This document shows, piece by piece, positions 1-9,986 of a stretch of DNA of 64,000 bases. The notes below the pieces were generated by a model that did not search any database, was not told the origin of the DNA, and saw only the letters and a list, made by a program, of their open reading frames with translations. This DNA comes from Acidimicrobiia bacterium (GTDB lineage Bacteria > Actinomycetota > Acidimicrobiia > Spongiisociales > ZC4RG35), in assembly GCA_965215185.1 (NCBI GenBank), contig OZ244034.1:1874244-1938243 (forward strand), in the 5' to 3' direction. Position 1 is the stretch's first letter. Each line of letters begins with the position of its first letter. Made by a program: the position numbers and the translations under genes.

Positions 1-135
1 GGCCCCGATTCTGGCCGCTTGCGCCAGATGGTCGGAGTTGGTGTCCCACCCGCGCACCTCCCACCCCTTTACAGAGAGTCCGATACCGATCGAAGCGCCG
101 ATCAGGCCAGTGCCGACAACCGCGACCGACCGCAT
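1..135 (-). CDS. tyrA: prephenate dehydrogenase, N-terminal fragment (gene continues past the window edge)
   Basis: Reverse-strand ATG at 135-133, directly downstream of the DAHP synthase stop (ctagATG). Translation MRSVAVVGTGLIGASIGIGLSVKGWEVRGWD... carries a Rossmann GxGxxG motif typical of TyrA. Aromatic amino-acid context. Confidence 0.6.
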   Translation of the reverse strand, partial: MRSVAVVGTGLIGASIGIGLSVKGWEVRGWDTNSDHLAQAARIGA

Positions 136-1149
136 CTAGAGAGGAATGCGCATGGCTTCGGCTATCACCTCGATACTGCTCATCAGTTCAGCGAACTCGT
201 GAGGGAGGATCGCTTGGGCGCCGTCAACCAGAGCTGTTTCGGGAGTGGGATGGACATCGATCATTATCCCGTCCGCTCCCACCGCCAAAGCCGCTCTGGA
301 AAGGGGCGCCACCAATTGTCTTTTGCCCGACGCGTGGGAGGGATCGACGATCACCGGAAGATGGGATAGTTCTTTGAGGAGCGGAACTGCCGTGATGTCG
401 AGAGTGTTGCGAGAGGCGGTCTCGAAAGTGCGGATACCCCGCTCAGCCATCAGAATCTCCTGATTTCCCTCTTTAAAGATGTATTCGGCGGCGTTCAGCC
501 ATTCCTCCAAAGTGGCGGTGAAGCCCCGCTTGAGCATCACCGGGGTCTTGGTGCGGCCCACTTCGGTAAGGAGGGCAAAGTTGGACATATTCCGGGTTCC
601 GATCCGGACCATGTCGGCGTATCCGGCCACCAGTTCCACGTCTCGGGGATCCAGCACCTCGGCCACGAACGGCATGTCAAATTCCTCGCGGGCCTCGGCC
701 AAGAGCATCAGCCCCTTTTCCTTCAAACCCTGAAAGGAGAACGGAGAAGTGCGCGGCTTGAAGGCGTCTCCCCGCAACACCGTGGCGCCCGCCTCTCTCA
801 CGGCCTCGGCGGTTTGGAACAATACGTCCCGAGATTCCACGGCACACGGTCCCGCGATAGCAGTAAACGACCCGTCGCCGATCCTCACCCCCCGGATCTC
901 GATCACTGTGTTCGCCTCCTGGAACTCCCGGCTCACCAGCTTGAAAGGCCTCATCACCGGTACGGCCTTCTCCACACCACCCAGCGCCTCCAGGGGCAAT
1001 TGCAGAATCTGCTGACGATCACCCACTGCTCCTATGACAGTCCGGAAACGTCCCACCGACACATGAGCCTCACAATCTATAGACTGAAGCCGGTTCACAA
1101 CGACCTGAACCTGTTCGTCGGTAGCGTCTTGTCTCATCACGATGATCAT
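136..1149 (-). CDS. 3-deoxy-7-phosphoheptulonate (DAHP) synthase, type I-beta, with N-terminal ferredoxin-like/ACT regulatory domain
   Basis: 337-aa ORF. C-terminal KDO8P/DAHP synthase TIM-barrel motifs (GPCAVES, KRGF, IMIDVHP) and a short N-terminal regulatory domain. Adjacent to tyrA. Confidence 0.85.
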
Positions 1150-1306
1150 CGGCGATCCCTTTTCGTCAATCTGTCTCCAATATTACGGCTCCACAAACTA
1201 CCGAGAGTCGTTGAATCACCTCGCCGGAGCGCAGGACGGTGATCGCGAAGTATTCCGAAGGCCTGACCGAACCCTGCGTCCGGTGGTCCGGTAACCTCTT
1301 TCCGAT

Positions 1307-1861
1307 ATGTCCATTGATATCGCCGGATTCATTCACAACGTCAAAGAACACGCGATCAAACACGCCTTTCATATTCACGACGAGCGACACTTTGTGGAGA
1401 CCTATTCGCTTCGCCAATCCTGGGAGGTGGACCTACATCCCGCCGAGTCCTGCAACCTGCCCATCGACCTGCACCTGTCGTTGGATGTTGAACCCCGGGC
1501 GCTGTTGGCCCTGCTCGACCGCCTGGAAGAGATGGACGACGACTTCGAGGAACCAGAAGACATATATCAGATGCACATGTACTTCAACTGGTCGGTTCCT
1601 CCGCTCACCAATCCGCCGGATTTGTTAGTGCTGGCCACCGATCTGGCCGGAGTGGGCGACATCCCGCTCCCCATCGAAGTGCAGGCCATCGACTCCTACG
1701 CTCCCCTGGGCCCTCCCACTCAACGGCGTCTGATGATCACCGGCACCGTTCACATCTCCATGGTCGACGTGGTGATGGGACGCGAACAGCTGTGCGAAAC
1801 CTTGGACCTGGCCAAAGAGGTAAGCGTCTATTTGGCCGACCATATCGAAGCCTGGGTTTAA
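1307..1861 (+). CDS. hypothetical protein (acidic, no recognisable domain)
   Basis: 184-aa ORF with protein-like composition. Stop codon 13 bp before the IS end. Confidence 0.45.
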   Translation: MSIDIAGFIHNVKEHAIKHAFHIHDERHFVETYSLRQSWEVDLHPAESCNLPIDLHLSLDVEPRALLALLDRLEEMDDDFEEPEDIYQMHMYFNWSVPPLTNPPDLLVLATDLAGVGDIPLPIEVQAIDSYAPLGPPTQRRLMITGTVHISMVDVVMGREQLCETLDLAKEVSVYLADHIEAWV

Positions 1862-1873
1862 GGGAGGGAGGGA

Positions 1874-3287
1874 GGGACTTATATACCTGAGTACCCGAGG
1901 GTGCTCTGATACTGTATCTGTGTCGTCTGCCTGCCGTTTCGCCCCGAAGAGCTCGCCGGTCTTACAGCAGAGGTTTGTATAGCGCGACACATCGGCTGAC
2001 AGTCCCGGCCGATCCCGAGGTTCCCGGTGGGGAAAGCCTCGGGCGCATATGTTTCTTGCGGCGGTGTGGTCTCTGCACATGATGAGACCGCACCCTCCGC
2101 ACTCGTACACTCGCACAGACAGAGGCATGCTCTGTCTGTGACCGCAGCACGAGCAGTCCGTGGAGGTGTGTGACGGGTTTACTCTCACATACGGGACACC
2201 AGTTTTCCAGGCTTTGTGTGCCAGTATCTGACAGAGAGTCTCCCATCTTTGTTCGGACATCTTCTTGGAGAACCTCTTGGATCTGAGCATTCCCCCCACG
2301 TTCAAGCCCTCCACCGCCATGCCGTCGTGGGCGCTCACCAACTGGTGGGCTAGGCGGAAGTCGGCCTGTCGGGCTCGTTCCTTTTCTCTGCGCCACACCT
2401 TGGCGTGAGCCGCCACCTTCTTGCGGCGTGAGAGGGAACCTTTCTTCGATCTGCTGATCTGGCGCTGGGTTCTCCTTATAGCGGAGCGATCCACCACTGG
2501 AGCGGGGATGCTCCGCCCGTTCGAGGTGGGAAGGCGGATGTGCAGTCCCAGGTCTATACCCACCGGATGTTGCGGCTCCTTCTCGGCCATGGGGCGGTGC
2601 GGGTGTCTCAGCACCACCTGCACCTCGGTTCTCAGAGGAGTGCGCACCACTCGCAGTTCCACCACCATGGCGCCGAGACCGAGCGCGGTAGCGAGTCGGT
2701 TGCTCCGGTCGGAGAACCGCAACCGAGGTACACCCTTCACCTGCAATCTCCACCATCGTTCCGATTGGTTGTTGCCGGTACCGGGCGCACAGACCATGGA
2801 TGGGGTCGGATCGGGTATCTCTATGGAACGCCAACGGTGCGAAGGCTTGAAGCGCGGATACCCCCGGGCCTTCCTCCTTCTTTGCACCTGCGATAGAAGG
2901 CGGCTCTGGCCCTGTCAAAACGGCGGATGACCCCTCTGCCTACCTTGACGGACAGCCGGTTCCACTCCGCAAGATCCTCGCGGACCCCGGTGAACTGCTT
3001 TATCAAGTCCTACTTGGATTGGTTCAGTTCGGAAGGGAACGTCTCCGTTTCCAGATTATGGTGTTCCTTCCACCATGAGTATGCGCCTTTCCACGACTCC
3101 AGGCAGGCGTTGTACATCTCGGCGCACATTCCGAAAATCTCCGTGAGCCTGCGGTGCTGGGAGGGTGAACACTTGGCGGGCAGGTGCATGGCCTGAAACC
3201 AAACATCCATAGGGTGTCAGCGTACCCAGAGGGTGTGACACTCTTTGCGCGTTAGGAGCCCGTGGGCAATCAGGTATACAAGTCCCC
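1874..3287 (-). mobile_element. TnpB-only IS200/IS605-like element, copy A (decayed), bounded by imperfect 17-bp terminal inverted repeats
   Basis: 1874-1890 gggacttatatacctga is the reverse complement of 3271-3287 caggtatacaagtcccc, with 1 mismatch. Interior encodes TnpB in three frames. About 75% nucleotide identity to copy B at 8582-9986. Confidence 0.7.
1898..3210 (-). pseudogene. tnpB: tnpB (RNA-guided nuclease TnpB / OrfB_IS605), disrupted by at least 2 frameshifts and loss of the stop codon
   Basis: Fragments 3210-3010 (MDVWFQAMHLPAKCSPSQHRRLTEIFGMCAEMYNACLESWKG...), 3006-2821 and 2887-1625. RuvC-I GIDLGL motif. Zinc ribbon CSCCGH...CGGCG followed by DRDxNAAxNI. The ORF reads through into flanking DNA because the stop codon seen in copy B is mutated. 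Confidence 0.7.
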
Positions 3288-3396
3288 TTCAAAGCCATCC
3301 GCACCCTGCGGTGCTGTCCAGTTGCGCTTTGACCGACGGATCGGTGGTGGCGGGGGTGGGCCCTACGGGGGAGGAAACTAGGTGGTTTTTCGCGGG

Positions 3397-4365
3397 TTAG
3401 GGATAGCCGAACTGGGGTTGCAGTCCTACAACCTTGGGTCCGTCCTCTTCCATCTCCAAGAACACCAGCCAGGTGGACCAATCGAGTCCGCCCAGGGTCT
3501 CGTCATCTCCGGGGTCGTGTATGGCTACCCATGGGAAGTTGGCGAACGCCGAAGAAATCGCCGATCCGGGCAGCACCGCATTGGAGCCCAACGGGAGGGC
3601 GCCCACCTCGATCGTCATGTCCTCGTCCAGGTAATCAGAGAGGAAGGCATCGGAGATCACTTCCTTCCAGGATCCCACCGTGGCGGCCCCCTCGCTGGCC
3701 GAAGCTCCGGTGTTCGACCACTTCAAATCGGTGTCGTCGGAGGCCAATGTGCCTAGCTCCTCCGGTGTCCAGCGCCGCAAGTTGTCGTCAAAATAGATAG
3801 CGAACAGACCCCTCCAGGACACGCTGTCGGCCAAGCCTTCTCCCAGCACCAAAGCGTTGGCGAATCGGTCGAGAGCCGAACTCCATTCCCACTCCTGTTC
3901 GACCTCCGACGGCGTCCAAATCTCGGTCAGGTAATAGCCGTAGGCCCATCCCTGGAAATCCGCAGTTCTCACTTCGTGCCAAATCCGGCCCTCGTCCACT
4001 TCGACAGCGCCGGTGGCGACCAGCTCCGCCTGAGCCGGCGCAAGCTCGCCGACGACGGGATTCTGGGTTCCCGGATCTCCCCGGACGTTCAATTTGTTGT
4101 TTGACTCACCGGGCGCAAGCACCACCACCCCCAGGCTTCGGCGAGGGATGGTGGTGGTGGTAGTGGGCGCGGCGGTGGAAGCAACCGTGGCTTGATCCGT
4201 TGTGTCGGGTGCCGCATTTGCGTCTGCTGCACCTTCCGAAGTGGTGGTGGCTTCACCATTGGAGCCTTCTGCATCGTCGCCTCCGCATGCCGCCAGCACC
4301 AGAGTCATCAGCACCATCACCCACAGAAGTCGGCGAGGCACGGTCTGCGATGCAGTATGGGACAT
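3397..4365 (-). CDS. secreted lipoprotein of unknown function
   Basis: Signal peptide plus lipobox (LVLAAC). Ser/Thr/Ala-rich linker. 322 aa. Confidence 0.55.
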   Translation of the reverse strand: MSHTASQTVPRRLLWVMVLMTLVLAACGGDDAEGSNGEATTTSEGAADANAAPDTTDQATVASTAAPTTTTTIPRRSLGVVVLAPGESNNKLNVRGDPGTQNPVVGELAPAQAELVATGAVEVDEGRIWHEVRTADFQGWAYGYYLTEIWTPSEVEQEWEWSSALDRFANALVLGEGLADSVSWRGLFAIYFDDNLRRWTPEELGTLASDDTDLKWSNTGASASEGAATVGSWKEVISDAFLSDYLDEDMTIEVGALPLGSNAVLPGSAISSAFANFPWVAIHDPGDDETLGGLDWSTWLVFLEMEEDGPKVVGLQPQFGYP

Positions 4366-4479
4366 ACCAATTCAGATTAGCACCCAGCCGGAACGTATTT
4401 CCTGTCAAAAACATGCTTTTATGAAGTCAGCGCCCTCCGTTGCATTACCAGGGTCGCCCTCCGGTCGCGTAGACACTCG

Positions 4480-5361
4480 CTAGGGCTGCTCGCCCCTCTC
4501 CAGCCGCCGGTTGATGTCACTCACCACCTCCACCAATTCCAACGGCTCGTCGATCACATAATGAGCGCCAGCCTCCCGCAGCAATCGACGGGTGTTTGCC
4601 AAACGCCGGGCCACCTGCGCCGACGACCACGACTCCGCCTGCTCCAAGGTGTCGGCGTTCATGTAATTGCTGTATCGGGCGATCCCCACCGTCCAGCATC
4701 CCGCCGACAAGCCCTCCTCCACTCCCGAGACCGTGTCGTCCACCTTGACCACCGACTGAATGGGGTGCACATCGAGCAGCTCCAGATTGCGATACAGCAT
4801 GAAGGGGCGGGGACGGCTGCCATGAGCCACCTCGTCACCCGTCACGGTGCAATCGGGGTAAAAGCCCTGTTGGCGGGCGTGCTCCAAGAGGACATTCACC
4901 ATGGATCGCAAGAACCCGGTGGTCATGCCGATCTTTACGCCGAGGTCACCCTGCAACTTCTCCGCCATTTCCACCACGCCCGGCAGGAGTTGGGCGTACT
5001 CGGGAAGACATTCGATCTGACGCGGCTCGAACTCTTCGAACAGCGACTGAGCGTCACTGTCACCGGGTTCTGTGCCGTGGGTGGCCATCCATCGTTCTCT
5101 GATGACAGGATCTTCCAGCAGCCTTCTGATATGCAGATCCTTGGACAAACCCATCGGACCCCGCGCCCGTCCCATACTTATCTCCACACCCCTGGTTTTG
5201 AACACCTCCACAAAAGTCCGGGCCGGGGCCATCACATAGGCGTCACAAACGGTTCCGCTCCAATCAAGGATTGCCCCACGAACCGGGCCACGGAACTCTC
5301 GGGCCAAAGGTGATTCGAACTTCCACATTGCCTTTACCAGGGAGCCGATCGGAGCGAACAA
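4480..5361 (-). CDS. phnX: phosphonoacetaldehyde hydrolase (phosphonatase), HAD superfamily
   Basis: AILDWSGT HAD motif I. RGPMGLSKDLHIRRL closely matches the PhnX substrate-binding region. Start may be an internal Met, about 11 codons downstream. Confidence 0.8.
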   Translation of the reverse strand: MFAPIGSLVKAMWKFESPLAREFRGPVRGAILDWSGTVCDAYVMAPARTFVEVFKTRGVEISMGRARGPMGLSKDLHIRRLLEDPVIRERWMATHGTEPGDSDAQSLFEEFEPRQIECLPEYAQLLPGVVEMAEKLQGDLGVKIGMTTGFLRSMVNVLLEHARQQGFYPDCTVTGDEVAHGSRPRPFMLYRNLELLDVHPIQSVVKVDDTVSGVEEGLSAGCWTVGIARYSNYMNADTLEQAESWSSAQVARRLANTRRLLREAGAHYVIDEPLELVEVVSDINRRLERGEQP

Positions 5362-5460
5362 TTCGTAATCAACATTTCCTCTATAAGTCTGCCAATCGGA
5401 GCGAACAATTCGTAATCAACATTTCCTCTATAAGTCTGCCAATCGGAGCGAACGATTCGT
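5350..5460. repeat. AT-rich 47-bp tandem direct repeat, 2.4 copies, in the divergent phnX/lutA intergenic region
   Basis: Unit cggagcgaacaattcgtaatcaacatttcctctataagtctgccaat at 5350-5396 and 5397-5443, then a partial copy with 1 mismatch at 5444-5460. Confidence 0.9.
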
Positions 5461-5464
5461 AGTA

Positions 5465-6253
5465 TTGTCCCGTCCCATGTCGGAGACTGTTCAACTATTC
5501 GTCACTTGCGTTATCGACGCCATCTTTCCGCAAGTCGGCCGCGACGTTGTTGAGGAGTTGGAAAGAAATGGTGTAACCGTTGAATTTCCCGAGGACCAGA
5601 CCTGCTGCGGCCAGCCGGCCTACAACGCCGGGCATCTTCGGGAGGCATCCGAGGTGCTGGTCCACAATCTGGAGGTTCTGGACCGCACCGAAGGGCCCAT
5701 AGTGATTCCCTCCGGATCCTGCACCGACTTCATCATGCATCACGGCCCGCGGGTGGCCGCCGATATTCCGGGCAGGGCCGACATTGCCAAGCGGGTGGCG
5801 GCTCGCATCCGCGAGTTCACGTCTTATCTTGTCGAAAAGCGGCGAGAAATCGCCAGCGAGGGGACCGCAGACGAAAGCGGGGACAACGGAGAGCGGCGGC
5901 GGGCCTACTACCACCCTTCCTGCCACGCTCTGCGCGGCCTGGGTCTGCGCCGAGAGGGGGAAATGCTGTTGGAATCGGTGAAGGGGGTGGAACGGGTTGA
6001 ACTCGAGGGTGCCGAGGAATGCTGTGGATTCGGTGGCCTGTTCGCATTGGAGATGCCCGAAATCTCCGCCAAGATCATGAACACCAAGCTGGATCGACTG
6101 GAGAACGGGGAAGTGCAGATGCTGGTGGGCGCCGACGTGGCCTGCCTCATGCACATGGAAGGGGGCCTTCGTCGCCGCAAGAACCCCATGCAGGTGCTGC
6201 ACATCGCCTCGGCGCTGGCCGGTGGCCGGGCCGTTGATGGAGAATACCAATGA
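5465..6253 (+). CDS. lutA: L-lactate utilization protein A (Fe-S oxidoreductase with two CCG domains)
   Basis: Two cysteine-rich CCG motifs (CCG...C, CCGFGG). About 260 aa. Followed by lutB and lutC with overlapping stops and starts. Confidence 0.8.
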   Translation: MSRPMSETVQLFVTCVIDAIFPQVGRDVVEELERNGVTVEFPEDQTCCGQPAYNAGHLREASEVLVHNLEVLDRTEGPIVIPSGSCTDFIMHHGPRVAADIPGRADIAKRVAARIREFTSYLVEKRREIASEGTADESGDNGERRRAYYHPSCHALRGLGLRREGEMLLESVKGVERVELEGAEECCGFGGLFALEMPEISAKIMNTKLDRLENGEVQMLVGADVACLMHMEGGLRRRKNPMQVLHIASALAGGRAVDGEYQ

Positions 6254-7653
6254 GCCAGCCGGTTACCTTCCGCCGTCGCGCCATTGAAGAGATGGCCACT
6301 TCCAAACCCGCGGCGGTGGACCGGGCAGCGCGCCGGTTTACCGACAAACGCCAATGGGCGGTGAACGATTTCGCAGCCATGGAGGAAACCCGCGACCGGG
6401 GCCGGGAGATCCGCCTTCACACCCTGGCCAACCTGCACCGCTACCTCGACCAATTCGCCGACTCGGTGGAACGCGCCGGAGGGCAGGTGCTGTGGGCCGC
6501 CGACGCGGCTGAGGCCAACCAGCAGATCGCCGAGTTGATAGCCAGGAAAAAGGGTTCGCTGGTGATCAAATCCAAATCGATGGTCACCGAAGAACTCGGA
6601 CTCCTCCACCATCTGGAAAACGAGGGCCACACCGTGGTGGAGACCGATCTGGGAGAGTTCATCGTCCAGATCGCCAAGGACCATCCGTCCCACATCATCG
6701 CGCCGGTCATGCACCTCACCCGCCAGGACATCGGCGCCCTTTTCCAACAGGAACTGGGATTTCCCTATTCGGAGGACCCGGCTGATCTAACCCAGATGGC
6801 CCGCCGGCACCTACGACGATTTTTCCTCTCCGCCGATGTGGGGATCTCGGGAGTGAACATGGGAGTGGCCGAGACCGGATCGATAATCACCATCACCAAC
6901 GAGGGCAACGGCTGGCTGACCACCGCCGCGCCCCGGTTGCACATCGCGGTGATGGGCATGGAGCGCCTGGTTCCCACTATGAATGACGCGGCCACCATCG
7001 TGGAGATACTGGCTCGGTCGGCCACGGGTCAACGGCTGAGCGTCTACACCAATGTGGTGACCGGCCCGAGAAGACCGGGCGACCCGGACGGGCCGGACGA
7101 GATGGCGGTGGTGATCGTGGACAACGGGCGCAGCCTCGTGTTGGAAAGCGACGCCTCCGAGATCCTGGCCTGCATCCGGTGCGGCGCCTGCCTGAACGTC
7201 TGCCCTGTGTTCCGGGAGGTGGGGGGTCACGCCTACGGACAGGTGTATCCCGGTCCGGTGGGGGCGGTGCTGGCGCCCGGGCTGGCCGACTTCAAGGATC
7301 ATTTGGACCTGCCCTATGCCTCCAGCCTGTGCGGAGCGTGCCGGGAGGTATGCCCGGTGCGTATCGACATCCCCAAGCTCCTGGTCAACCAACGCGTTCG
7401 AGCCACCAAGGAAAACGATCCGTTCCGGTGGATGGGCCCGGGACTGGCCGTTTACCGCCAAGCCGGCAAGCGCCCGCTGCTGTGGAAATCGTTGCTGGCC
7501 GCCGGGCGAATGGCCGGGCGGGTAAAGAAAGAAGGCGAGTGGTTCCACCGCCTGCCCTTCCAAAGCAAAGGGTGGACCGACAGCCGCGACTTTCCCCCAC
7601 CGGCGAAACAGTCCTTCCGGCAATGGTGGAAAGAAAGCCGCGATGGAACGTAG
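6250..7653 (+). CDS. lutB: L-lactate utilization protein B (LUD domain plus 2x[4Fe-4S] binding)
   Basis: CIRCGACLNVCP and CGACREVCP ferredoxin motifs. LUD domain. 467 aa. Confidence 0.85.
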   Translation: MSQPVTFRRRAIEEMATSKPAAVDRAARRFTDKRQWAVNDFAAMEETRDRGREIRLHTLANLHRYLDQFADSVERAGGQVLWAADAAEANQQIAELIARKKGSLVIKSKSMVTEELGLLHHLENEGHTVVETDLGEFIVQIAKDHPSHIIAPVMHLTRQDIGALFQQELGFPYSEDPADLTQMARRHLRRFFLSADVGISGVNMGVAETGSIITITNEGNGWLTTAAPRLHIAVMGMERLVPTMNDAATIVEILARSATGQRLSVYTNVVTGPRRPGDPDGPDEMAVVIVDNGRSLVLESDASEILACIRCGACLNVCPVFREVGGHAYGQVYPGPVGAVLAPGLADFKDHLDLPYASSLCGACREVCPVRIDIPKLLVNQRVRATKENDPFRWMGPGLAVYRQAGKRPLLWKSLLAAGRMAGRVKKEGEWFHRLPFQSKGWTDSRDFPPPAKQSFRQWWKESRDGT

Positions 7654-8296
7654 CCAGTTCCTGAAGCGGATCGAACAGGCCCTCGGCTCCGATTCCCTGC
7701 CCGGGCTTCCCGCCCGCCATCCCGACCACCACCTCCCCCACCTGGAAGAGGTGGACCTGACCACTCATTTCATAGCCGCCTTCGAGCTGCTGGACGGGAT
7801 AGTCCATCACGGATCGCCTCTGGACGTGATCACCCGGATCATGGAAGACCGCGGAACCCGGGAGTACCTGGCCTGGGACCAGGAGCACCTTCCCAGCGAG
7901 GGCCTGTTAGACGCTCTGGGACAGAAGGGATACCGGCGGAAGGGAACCGTCCTGCCATCCGACCCCGATGGTCGTATCCCCCACCAGATGGGCTACATGG
8001 ACGCCGAGGTTGGGATCTCCGCGGCGATGGCCGCCCTGGCCGAGTCCGGCTCGGTGGTGGTGACTTCGGGACCCGGGCGTTCTCGTTTGGCCTCGGTGAT
8101 CCCCGCCGTTCACATAGTGCTGGTGCCCACCAGGCTGATCTTTCGCTCGCTATCCCATTGGGCGGCGCAGGTTGAATCACCCGATCAGTTGGCGAACATC
8201 ATGGTCATAACCGGACCCAGCCGCACCGGCGACATCGAACTCACCCTCACCAAAGCAGTGCACGGACCCGGCGACATCCACGCCGTTCTGCTGTAG
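7643..8296 (+). CDS. lutC: L-lactate utilization protein C (LUD domain)
   Basis: 217 aa. Overlaps the lutB stop. LUD/YkgG-like sequence. Confidence 0.75.
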   Translation: MERSQFLKRIEQALGSDSLPGLPARHPDHHLPHLEEVDLTTHFIAAFELLDGIVHHGSPLDVITRIMEDRGTREYLAWDQEHLPSEGLLDALGQKGYRRKGTVLPSDPDGRIPHQMGYMDAEVGISAAMAALAESGSVVVTSGPGRSRLASVIPAVHIVLVPTRLIFRSLSHWAAQVESPDQLANIMVITGPSRTGDIELTLTKAVHGPGDIHAVLL

Positions 8297-8334
8297 GCGC
8301 CACCCCGTCCTCCTCAAGCTCCCGGGGTGTTTCA

Positions 8335-8580
8335 TCATGACAGTTGAATAGCTATCGGCTTTAGGTCTTCACTTGGAATCAAGGAGAGACCCATGAGGTT
8401 GATAATGTCTTCCCCGATCCCTTGGACGATCATCTCCCCAGGTTCTATATCTGTAGGGCCGAATGCGACTTCGCCGCCAAAGTTGACATACGCCCTGCGA
8501 TAGAGATCGAAGCATTCATAGAGCACCTGATAGAGCTCTTTCGAAAAGCCTTCCTGCCCCCTGTAGTCGGCGCGACGTAG
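8335..8580 (-). pseudogene. possible orphan C-terminal gene fragment of low GC, adjacent to the IS
   Basis: Protein-like reverse-strand ORF (…LYECFDLYRRAYVNFGGEVAFGPTDIEPGEMIVQGIGEDIINLMGLSLIPSEDLKPIAIQLS*) with no start codon of its own. About 50% GC against about 67% in the surroundings. Abuts the element end at 8582. Confidence 0.25.
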
Positions 8581-8581
8581 A

Positions 8582-9986
8582 GGGACTTATATACCTAGGT
8601 TGACAGAGCGTCTAGGTGATACTGTTCTGCGGTGTCTGCCAGCATCTTCCGGCCTGAGCCGAAAGATGTCTTACAACAGAGATTTGTAGAGCGCACCGCG
8701 TCGGGAAACACGAGGTCATGTCCCACCCGACCCCAAGGATCCCAGGTGGGATAGTCTCGGGCGCATATGTTGATTGCAGCATTGTGGTCTCTGCACATGG
8801 TCAGTCCACACTGTTCGCACCGGAAGGTTCTCACGTTGAGGGGCATCTTTTGGTGATGCCCGCATCGGGAACAGTCGGTGGAGGTGTGGCGAGGGTTTAC
8901 CCCCGCATAGTGGACACCAGCTTTCGCGGCTTTGTGTTCCAGTATGAGATCGAAGGATCCCCAGCGTTGCTGTGACATCTGTTTGGAGAACAGCTTGGTT
9001 TTCAGCAGTCCGGCGATATTGAGCTTTTCGACAGCTATGCCGTCGTAGGCCTTGACCAGGCGGTCGGCCAGGCGGAAGTCCGACTGGATGGCCTGTTCCT
9101 GTAGGCGGCGGTGCTGTTTGGCGAGAGTGTTTGCGCTTCTTGATGCGAGACCGTGATCCCTTGACGGACCTGCTGAACCGGCGCTGAGCGCGCAACGCCT
9201 GTCGCAGATCCACGGTTGTGGGTGGTAGGTGTTCGCCGTCGGAAGTGACCAGGCGTGACTTGAGGCCCTTGTCCAAACCGACGGGATTGACAGGATCTGC
9301 CACCGGTGGGCGGTCAGGGTGCTTGATGACCGCGTGTATCTCGACTCGCAGAGGAGTGCGGGCCACTCGCAGTTCCACCAGCCGGCCGCTCTCCAACGCG
9401 GTAGTGAGGCGGTCGTGTTTGTCCTCGAACCGTATCTGCGGCACGCCCTTCACCTGTAGTCTCCACCACTTCTCGCTGTGGTTCTTTCTCTCTCCCGGAG
9501 CTTTGAGCATCGCGCGGTCAGCGTTCACAATCTCTATCGACTTCCACCGGTGACGCGGCTTGAAACGGGGAAACCCGGCCTTCTTGGAAGGGTCCTTACA
9601 TCTCTTATAAAAGGCCTGAATAGACCGGTCGAAGCGGCGCAACGTTCCGCGCCCCACTCGAAGGCTCAAACGCTGCCACTCAGGATGGTCCTTGCGTACA
9701 TCGGTGAACATCCGCAGACGGTCATAGTGAGACTGGTTCAGTTCTAGGGGAAGGGGTTCGTCGGGATGGTGTTCTTTCCACCACCGGTATGTGCCCTTCC
9801 ATGATTCCAGGCATGCGTTATACAACTCGCAACACTGCGCGAAGATGTCATCCAAACGACGGTGCGCCGAGCGGGAACAATGCCCTTTCAGCCGGATCGT
9901 CTGCACCCAAGGAACCATCATCTAAAAATATCCCACCCCTGCGAAAAAAGGGGTGGCTGGTTGTCAACCTAGGTATATAAGTCCCC
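8582..9986 (-). mobile_element. TnpB-only IS200/IS605-like element, copy B (near-intact), bounded by perfect 24-bp terminal inverted repeats
   Basis: 8582-8605 gggacttatatacctaggttgaca is the exact reverse complement of 9963-9986. tnpB stop lies 13 bp from one end and tnpB start 65 bp from the other. No target-site duplication detected. Confidence 0.8.
8595..9921 (-). pseudogene. tnpB: tnpB (OrfB_IS605 RNA-guided nuclease) with a single frameshift near 9115-9140; the only defect seen
   Basis: N-terminal ORF 9921-8716 (RRLDDIFAQCCELYNACLESWKG..., RuvC-I GLDKGL). In another frame, ADRLVKAYDGIAVEKLNIAGLLK gives the RuvC-II Glu. C-terminal ORF 8978-8595 has the zinc ribbon CSRCGH...CEQCG, RuvC-III DRDHNAAINI and a stop. 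Confidence 0.75.

Follow-up and report, generated by a model that had tools for sequence, protein, structure and literature searches.

TnpB, from which Cas12 descends, is a compact nuclease for genome editing, and what is known of its biology comes from IS605 and IS607 elements, which excise without leaving a scar. In the textbook description, elements that carry only tnpB have neither terminal inverted repeats nor target-site duplications. The main text of Altae-Tran et al. 2023 (PNAS, PMC10691335) describes six DDE-associated branches of TnpB (DDE-1 to DDE-6) with inverted terminal repeats, in which no more than 250 bp separate the 3' end of tnpB from a transposon end and solo TnpBs share the ends of transposase-bearing copies, implying mobilisation in trans. 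A 2026 review lists ISL2, IS630 and IS1031 as TnpB partners, calls such partnerships rare in prokaryotes and makes no mention of IS1595. Here we analysed two tnpB-bearing elements, A and B, in a 64-kb stretch of contig OZ244034.1 from an Acidimicrobiia bacterium (the window, by which we mean the whole 64,000 nucleotides). Judging from the DNA and its predicted products, we estimate a chance of roughly three in four that A and B are non-autonomous members of a subgroup of the IS1595 family of DDE transposons, in which the transposase gene has given way to tnpB and its omega-RNA.

Each element contains a single gene, tnpB, on the minus strand, and left and right are used below in the direction of that gene. 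The parts of the two elements are as follows, where TAM stands for target-adjacent motif and R1 for the covariance model of the predicted RNA.

8582 to 9985, minus strand: element B, 1404 bp, non-autonomous, with IS1595-type inverted ends and tnpB as its sole gene.
9962 to 9985, minus strand: left-end inverted repeat of B, reading GGGACTTATATACCTAGGTTGACA in the direction of tnpB.
8582 to 8605, minus strand: right-end inverted repeat of B, which holds the tnpB stop codon TAG at 8595-8597.
8595 to 9921, minus strand: tnpB pseudogene of B, with one +1 frameshift near 9126 and otherwise intact RuvC and zinc-finger residues.
8582 to 8733, minus strand: structured region of B resembling an omega-RNA, with its end at the right-end tip (R1, 144.6 bits, E 4e-30).
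9994, minus strand: TAM-like position of B, a G (C on the plus strand) directly 5' of the 8-nucleotide left flank.
1874 to 3286, minus strand: element A, 1413 bp, more decayed than B and from a different lineage of the same family.
1916 to 3210, minus strand: tnpB pseudogene of A, with three disabling mutations.
1874 to 2015, minus strand: omega-RNA-like region of A, its invariant motif broken by a one-nucleotide insertion (R1, 119 bits, E 2.5e-24).
3295, minus strand: a G (C on the plus strand) directly 5' of the 8-nucleotide left flank of A.

A preliminary description, made from the sequence alone, had called the protein TnpB and proposed a profile search as the check. The NCBIfam model guided_TnpB matches with 174 bits against a cut-off of 100, the Pfam families OrfB_IS605 and Cas12f1-like_TNB are both found above their cut-offs, and the nearest natural solved structure is ISDra2 TnpB (PDB 8EXA, E 3.7e-20). 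A 27-sequence alignment (A1) shows no variation at the RuvC residues D217, E300 and D380 or at the zinc-finger cysteines C352, C355, C370 and C373, and all of them were found in the reconstructed protein of B, as had been proposed, and in A. The two proteins are only 55–59% identical. The unequal decay suggested for the pair is borne out, whereas their reading as two copies of one element is not: by their sequences, A and B are two lineages of one family.

Both copies are dead or dying. Compared with the intact relatives P0001 (440 amino acids) and P0002 (438 amino acids), the tnpB gene of B has one extra nucleotide at about 9126, within the interval 9115-9140 where a single frameshift had been noted. 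Bridging it gives a 443-amino-acid product with about 88% identity overall to P0001, its nearest relative, and 91% over the N-terminal 264 residues. Three lesions mark the gene of A: a nonsense codon (TAG, 3010-3012), a frameshift at 2860-2872 and, at about 1916, a one-nucleotide insertion, which abolishes the stop codon, as the preliminary description had seen, and falls in an RNA motif that is otherwise invariant; in the alignment, the extra T sits in the AGAACAGTAT motif. The closest protein to that of A is P0012 (locus L123, 80–84% identity).

The ends of the elements are well defined. The arms of B (8582-8605 and 9962-9985) are 24 nucleotides long and 100% complementary, which agrees with the perfect repeats reported earlier except that one arm, set at 9963-9986, was a base off. 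The arms of A (1874-1901 and 3259-3286) span 28 nucleotides with 82% complementarity, and their 17-nucleotide tips, previously noted as imperfect repeats, match at 16 of 17 positions. The 15-mer tip GGGACTTATATACCT has four matches with up to two mismatches in the window, which are exactly the four element ends, and shuffled sequences gave an expectation of 0.00.

Relatives were gathered in two ways, by looking up exact proteins and by scanning metagenomes. All TnpB loci with at least 51% identity whose ends lie inside the fetched DNA carry the same tips, as does L133 at 36% identity, and the tips are present in 0 of 72 metagenome TnpB loci with 33% identity or less. The ends are inverted repeats of about 24 nucleotides, made up of the tip GGGACTTATATACC and an inner block GTTGACA. 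The tip GGGACTTATA and this inner block are conserved through the clade and are similar to the ends of elements with an IS1595 transposase. Outside the tips lie direct repeats that are exactly 8 bp long, AT-rich and different in sequence at each locus. Such a duplication was found at 15 TnpB relatives, exact (8/8) at 11 and with 7/8 matches at 4, where the chance probability of each exact 8-bp match is about 1.5e-5.

L002: exact duplication ATTCATTG.
L003: exact duplication ATAGCTTG.
L043: exact duplication ATTTCATT.
L107: exact duplication TTACGGAA.
L123: exact duplication TAATCTTT.
L129: exact duplication TATCTTTT.
L133: exact duplication AAGATACT.
L286: exact duplication TTATTTAG.
L287: exact duplication TTTCGTTG.
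L288: exact duplication TTTCAATA.
L289: exact duplication TGTTATTG.
L011, L125, L128 and L130: duplication with 7/8 matches.

Inverted ends together with a duplication of fixed length and variable sequence are the hallmark of DDE transposases and the opposite of what defines IS200/IS605 and IS607 elements. The close relatives L001 and L002 have the same architecture as B, L002 with its exact duplication, and L123, the locus closest to A, likewise has its exact duplication.

Which family the transposase belongs to is indicated by other elements that share these ends. Reference genomes scanned with the 14-nucleotide tip gave at least 119 loci, mostly chance matches, and only loci with paired inverted tips were used. 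In about 15 scanned loci the tip is paired in inverted orientation, many of them with 8-bp duplications. Four of these (L052, L082, L031 and L118) encode proteins of about 300 amino acids with the Pfam domains DDE_Tnp_IS1595 and Zn_ribbon_IS1595 (E 1e-36 to 1e-42). The same ends also enclose other cargo or none, and in L011, L043 and L089 they surround more distant TnpBs (25–30% identity). The elements concerned are these.

L052: transposase element of 1912 bp, with the 8-bp duplication TAAGGTTA.
L082: transposase element of 2750 bp, with the 8-bp duplication TTTTATTT.
L078, 4175 to 6468: a protein with a LEM-3-like GIY-YIG nuclease domain, no transposase.
L031, 2908 to 4980: a Bro-N protein beside the transposase.
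L071, 5026 to 7854: a 223-amino-acid protein of no assigned family.
L111, 537 to 2443: a remnant of a TnpB C-terminus.
L015, 880 to 1059; L092, 6501 to 6684; L109, 2132 to 2315; L097, 4433 to 4539: cargo-free miniatures of 107–184 bp with the same tips and, beside them, 8-bp repeats that agree at 6/8 to 8/8.

IS1595 transposases on RefSeq plasmids, which were found by protein similarity and so independently of the tip scan, have related termini about 70 nucleotides upstream of the gene: GGGACATATATAC..TTTGAC, GGGGATTATGTATTTGACAAAC or GGCGATTGTATACTTGACAAAC. By organism, they read as follows.

Methylocystis: GGGACATATATACTAGTTTGACC.
Roseomonas: GGGGATTATGTATTTGACAAAC.
Pseudosulfitobacter: GGCGATTGTATACTTGACAAAC.

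The tips also appear to fit ggnnatTAT, the ISfinder consensus of the ISNwi1 group, which is known for passenger genes. In the Roseomonas and Methylobacterium plasmids (L294, 1477-3781, and L295, 757-3114), the IS1595 transposase gene is followed by a hypothetical gene and then by a PIN/VapC toxin gene, a trio that may be a passenger module.

The flanks of the TnpB loci yielded no IS1595 transposase at any locus, and none occurs in cis in the roughly 25 TnpB elements examined. With no transposase in or beside them, the elements are non-autonomous and presumably move in trans. Likewise, Y1 TnpA is not found beside the clade elements, although the same query detects it next to 28 or more of the distant TnpB loci (those of 33% identity or less), and the TnpA-adjacent distant loci checked for termini (the L134-L205 set) do not have these ends. 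The called neighbours of ten clade loci include no resolvase-type Pfam family, the mark by which an IS607 element would be recognised. Within the 64-kb window, tblastn found neither Y1 TnpA, whose absence the preliminary description had already stated, nor an IS1595 transposase.

Set beside the described systems, the window elements resemble DDE-1 to DDE-6 in their inverted repeats, in the closeness of the tnpB 3' end to the tip and in the occurrence of solo copies with shared ends. They differ in the presumed partner, which is named IS630 in the main text of the 2023 paper; that text does not mention IS1595 (ISXO2-like). From the IS1595 family they have termini of the GG..TTAT type, in their relatives also the 8-bp duplication, and sibling elements encoding a DDE_Tnp_IS1595 and zinc-ribbon transposase, and they depart from it in that the window elements have no transposase, their cargo being an RNA-guided nuclease with its predicted RNA. 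With IS1341-type TnpB-only elements and ISDra2 they share the protein family, the catalytic residues and the zinc finger, and also a predicted structured RNA that overlaps the 3' end of the gene and stops at the right end of the element. IS200/IS605 elements, by contrast, have no inverted repeats or duplication and are recognised by hairpin ends, a fixed motif of 4–5 nucleotides and a Y1 TnpA, all unlike what is found here. The label IS200/IS605-like given earlier thus fails for the mode of movement, as the relatives have 8-bp duplications and ends in common with IS1595 transposase elements. The remark that inverted repeats around a TnpB element are unusual was right in that such ends do not suit IS200/IS605; they are not unprecedented, as the main text of Altae-Tran et al. 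2023 (PMC10691335) attests. A full-text literature search for TnpB together with IS1595 returned no description of the pairing, and one of the six 2023 branches may overlap with it. DDE-linked TnpBs with inverted ends have been known since 2023, and no report of the link to IS1595 was found.

The right end of the elements appears to encode more than protein. The last 150 or so nucleotides before the right-end tip are conserved beyond what the protein needs, with an invariant AGAACAGTA motif about 40 nucleotides from the tip. A raw alignment analysed with RNAalifold gave only 13 pairs, the hairpin loops being poorly aligned; it was replaced by a mapped single-sequence fold and then by a covariance model. 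When the minimum-energy fold of B was mapped on an 18-sequence MAFFT alignment that had not been fitted to it (A2), 78.7% of cells were paired, compared with 32–45% when the partners were slid, and two-sided changes occurred in 101 cells compared with 19–32 under sliding. The observed values were not matched in any of 500 shuffles. Model R1 comprises 146 positions (about 135–165 nucleotides) with seven helices and 47 pairs, and was searched on the window and 99 loci. Its matches were confined to right ends of clade elements, three of them outside the training set, and every match ended at the tip; it did not match in 62 distant TnpB loci. In the model-fitted alignment (A4), 83.7% of cells are paired (33–41% in slid controls) and 143 cells are compensatory, with both sides changed (7–33 in controls). 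Covariation is seen at all five pairs of the long-range helix, which is 98% paired. In helix 7, the stretch that follows the invariant motif pairs with nucleotides 8–17 of the right inverted repeat, 81% paired with 6 of 10 pairs covarying; in B, the 3' strand of this helix is formed by nucleotides 8–17 from the tip of the right-end repeat. Because helix 7 uses the right repeat, the inverted repeat is part of the predicted RNA, and the tnpB reading frame runs through the RNA region with its stop codon inside the same repeat. This structured region fits a putative omega-RNA with the flanking DNA as guide. In the 64-kb window, no further match was found for the guides predicted for A and B. An Rfam scan of the whole window at gathering thresholds gave no match and hence no tRNA, rRNA or known riboswitch.

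Fanzor1 and Fanzor2 other than the IS607-associated type (Yoon et al. 2023, PMC10711439; Bao and Jurka 2013, PMC3627910) offer a further likeness, as they are TnpB-family nucleases carried as cargo on cut-and-paste transposons that have inverted repeats and duplications and are often non-autonomous, and predictions place the inverted repeat within their guide-RNA scaffold. In some Fanzor1 elements, a fixed TTTT stands just upstream of the 5' duplication, which resembles the G described below. The Fanzors are, however, eukaryotic or viral proteins with lineage features of their own and another transposase family, and the protein here is a canonical bacterial TnpB. In our elements, the variable 8-bp duplication more likely belongs to the guide than to the scaffold.

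The base next to the insertion site gave an unexpected signal that follows the orientation of tnpB. We oriented the elements by tnpB and scored the base directly 5' of the left-hand 8-mer, for which the background frequency of G is 0.31. All 23 main-clade elements have G at this position, including A, B and the copies without a duplication; counting L129 and L131 as one insertion leaves 22 independent cases, and with the second element of L288 added, the count of independent main-clade insertions is 24/24. L089, from a distant lineage, also has the G. The mirror position on the right shows no bias towards C (3/14). In non-TnpB elements with the same ends, G occurs in 4 of 16 flanks, and a reading of the flanks of transposase-bearing elements, oriented by the transposase, gave 4/9. 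Since the two ends look alike to a transposase, the asymmetry between left and right must come from tnpB. As a rule, the TAM of a TnpB is the sequence 5' of the left end of its element, and here it would be shifted by the 8-bp duplication. An empty site has the G directly 5' of the sequence that the presumed guide would match, and an occupied site has there the C of the repeat tip. On this sequence pattern, the upstream G looks like a TAM that would separate empty from occupied sites.

A possible cycle can be drawn from these features. An IS1595 transposase encoded elsewhere would bind the ends and move the element in trans, with each insertion duplicating 8 bp of target, which is AT-rich. The omega-RNA would arise from transcription that runs on through the right end, and its guide would be the flank, that is, the duplicated 8 bp and the DNA downstream. 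TnpB with this RNA might then cut the unoccupied site, where G precedes the target, and would spare the occupied site because the repeat tip puts a C at the position of the G. The cut at the empty site would favour copying of the element back by recombination. The stronger claim contained in this scheme is that the TnpB lineage is an integral, co-adapted module of a DDE transposon, with the repeat serving both as transposase site and as RNA scaffold, the guide starting at the duplication and the G acting as TAM. We hold it tentatively, at somewhat less than an even chance.

Several observations weigh against our interpretation. Neither window copy has a target-site duplication: the flanks of B, TTATCGTG on the left and TCTACGTC on the right, agree at 4 of 8 positions, and those of A, CTTTGAAG and TCCCTCCC, do not match. 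L001, L126 and L127 are also without one, with near-perfect inverted repeats despite its lack. The distant-lineage elements L101 and L061 have T instead of G and no duplication, and a single-base TAM would be unusually short for TnpB. The similarity of the termini partly follows from scanning with the 14-mer itself, although the likeness runs past it: GGGACTTATATACCTGACTA.GC is common to the transposase elements L031 and L118 and the TnpB elements L011 and L043. The alignment A4 was fitted to the structure of the model itself, while the unfitted A2 gives the same picture. Furthermore, no cognate transposase is present in the 64-kb window, and IS1595 transposition may be of the cut-and-paste or of the copy-out kind.

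The missing duplications of A and B are most simply explained by recombination among copies, which would keep the left G. Recombination between copies is known to leave insertion sequences that lack duplications (PMC11708052). Two metagenome contigs illustrate the exchange: L129 and L131 are 99.8% identical over the left flank and the element (positions 1-4890) and diverge completely from the right-end tip, L129 having the duplication TATCTTTT and L131 lacking it. This points to flank exchange exactly at an end, and the break could come from recombination, from a deletion there or from a chimeric assembly. Recombination of A with B was rejected as the cause because the two are too divergent (55–59%) and none of the four flanks match. 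A contig look-up with the window ORF (open reading frame) P0005 and two flanking window genes returned no match and no empty site.

Among the other accounts of these elements, the simplest holds that TnpB is an inert passenger on an IS1595-type element, the G reflecting a transposase preference specific to the lineage or mere sampling. In its favour, IS1595-type ends carry unrelated cargo as well (the GIY-YIG and Bro-N proteins), only one base is conserved upstream of the duplication, and the 2026 review argues that an OMEGA system (short for obligate mobile element-guided activity) brings little gain to cut-and-paste DDE elements. However, the G is tied to the orientation of tnpB and occurs on the left only, in 24 of 24 cases, even though the two repeats are nearly identical, and it is not shown by the non-TnpB elements. 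Across 40–90% divergence the open reading frames stay intact and the catalytic residues invariant, and the covarying RNA fused to the repeat indicates selection on the nuclease and RNA as a unit in this context. A passenger is thus unlikely, with a chance that still deserves attention. The full invariance of the G, stronger than soft selection after insertion might give, could instead mean that TnpB and its RNA choose the insertion site and that the G marks the recruitment or licensing of the transposase, as in CRISPR-associated transposons. We give this only a slim chance: the guide would be the flank of the previous site and could not specify a new one, the duplication sequences differ at every locus, the catalytic residues are intact, unlike those of Cas12k, and no TnsC- or TniQ-like partner was found in any locus.

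Two further explanations were weighed. The elements might be ordinary members of IS200/IS605, of the IS1341 type, that a Y1 TnpA moves in trans, with termini that are coincidental or form hairpins; the protein is indeed a genuine TnpB, and TnpB-only elements are classed under IS200/IS605 in databases. The 8-bp duplications of variable sequence, the termini in common with IS1595 transposase elements, the lack of Y1 TnpA beside clade elements when the same query is positive at 28 or more distant loci, and the very definition of IS200/IS605 by the absence of inverted repeats and duplications make this highly improbable. A domesticated TnpB, an RNA-guided regulator of the TldR type lying between the repeats by chance, has nothing specific to recommend it beyond the fact that exapted TnpBs are known. 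The conserved catalytic triad, the unrelated genomic contexts in which each element has its own duplication, and the pseudogene state of the window copies leave it scarcely credible.

Some features of the clade were noted in passing. L288 contains two family TnpB elements in the same orientation about 460 bp apart, one at 1417-2881 and the other from about 3338. In P0015 (588 amino acids, 56% identity), FHA-type domains (PF00498 and PF16697) are joined to the TnpB domains, which may be a fusion or a gene-calling artefact. Most clade members have (G)TGTCACA(C/G) between the left repeat and the start of tnpB, followed 10–12 nucleotides on by GGTAT or GGGATA, as at 3225-3245 of the window (minus strand) and at 2460-2490 of L123; the spacing is below that of a standard sigma-70 promoter. 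Viral contigs held only distant TnpBs (36% identity or less), and the PLSDB plasmids contained no close TnpB relative (33% or less).

Two repeats in the window lie at or between the elements. One had been placed directly before A, and we located it as follows.

1861 to 1877, plus strand: (AGGG)4.2 microsatellite that adjoins the right-end tip of A and overlaps it.

Its unit reiterates the 4-nucleotide tip GGGA (TCCC on the other strand); the microsatellite lies 0–12 nucleotides past the stop codon of the open reading frame at 1307-1861, and occurs once in the window. At two mismatches, 15 of 100 shuffles contained at least one match, which makes it weak evidence alone, and slippage at the tip could account for it. 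The other repeat, at 5322-5462, consists of three tandem copies of an intergenic 47-nucleotide unit, 77–100% identical, between a gene for a HAD-type hydrolase (4480-5361, minus strand) and a lutABC-like operon, whose first gene runs from 5465 onward; the units may be binding sites for a regulator. A and B do not form a composite transposon around lutABC, which was ruled out because the outer flanks GGGAGGGA and CACGATAA differ.

Whether and how TnpB helps DDE transposons that duplicate their target is a question raised in the 2026 review, and it also bears on the origin of Fanzor. The family described here is a clean bacterial test system for this question, with short non-autonomous elements, defined ends and duplications, a covarying RNA and the intact proteins P0001 and P0002, and the G next to the target is a simple TAM prediction. 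For annotation, our analysis carries the warning that "IS200/IS605 family TnpB" can mislabel the element that carries the gene. If the proposed scheme is true, these elements would be a prokaryotic counterpart of the Fanzor arrangement, and RNA-guided homing would also serve transposons that make target-site duplications.

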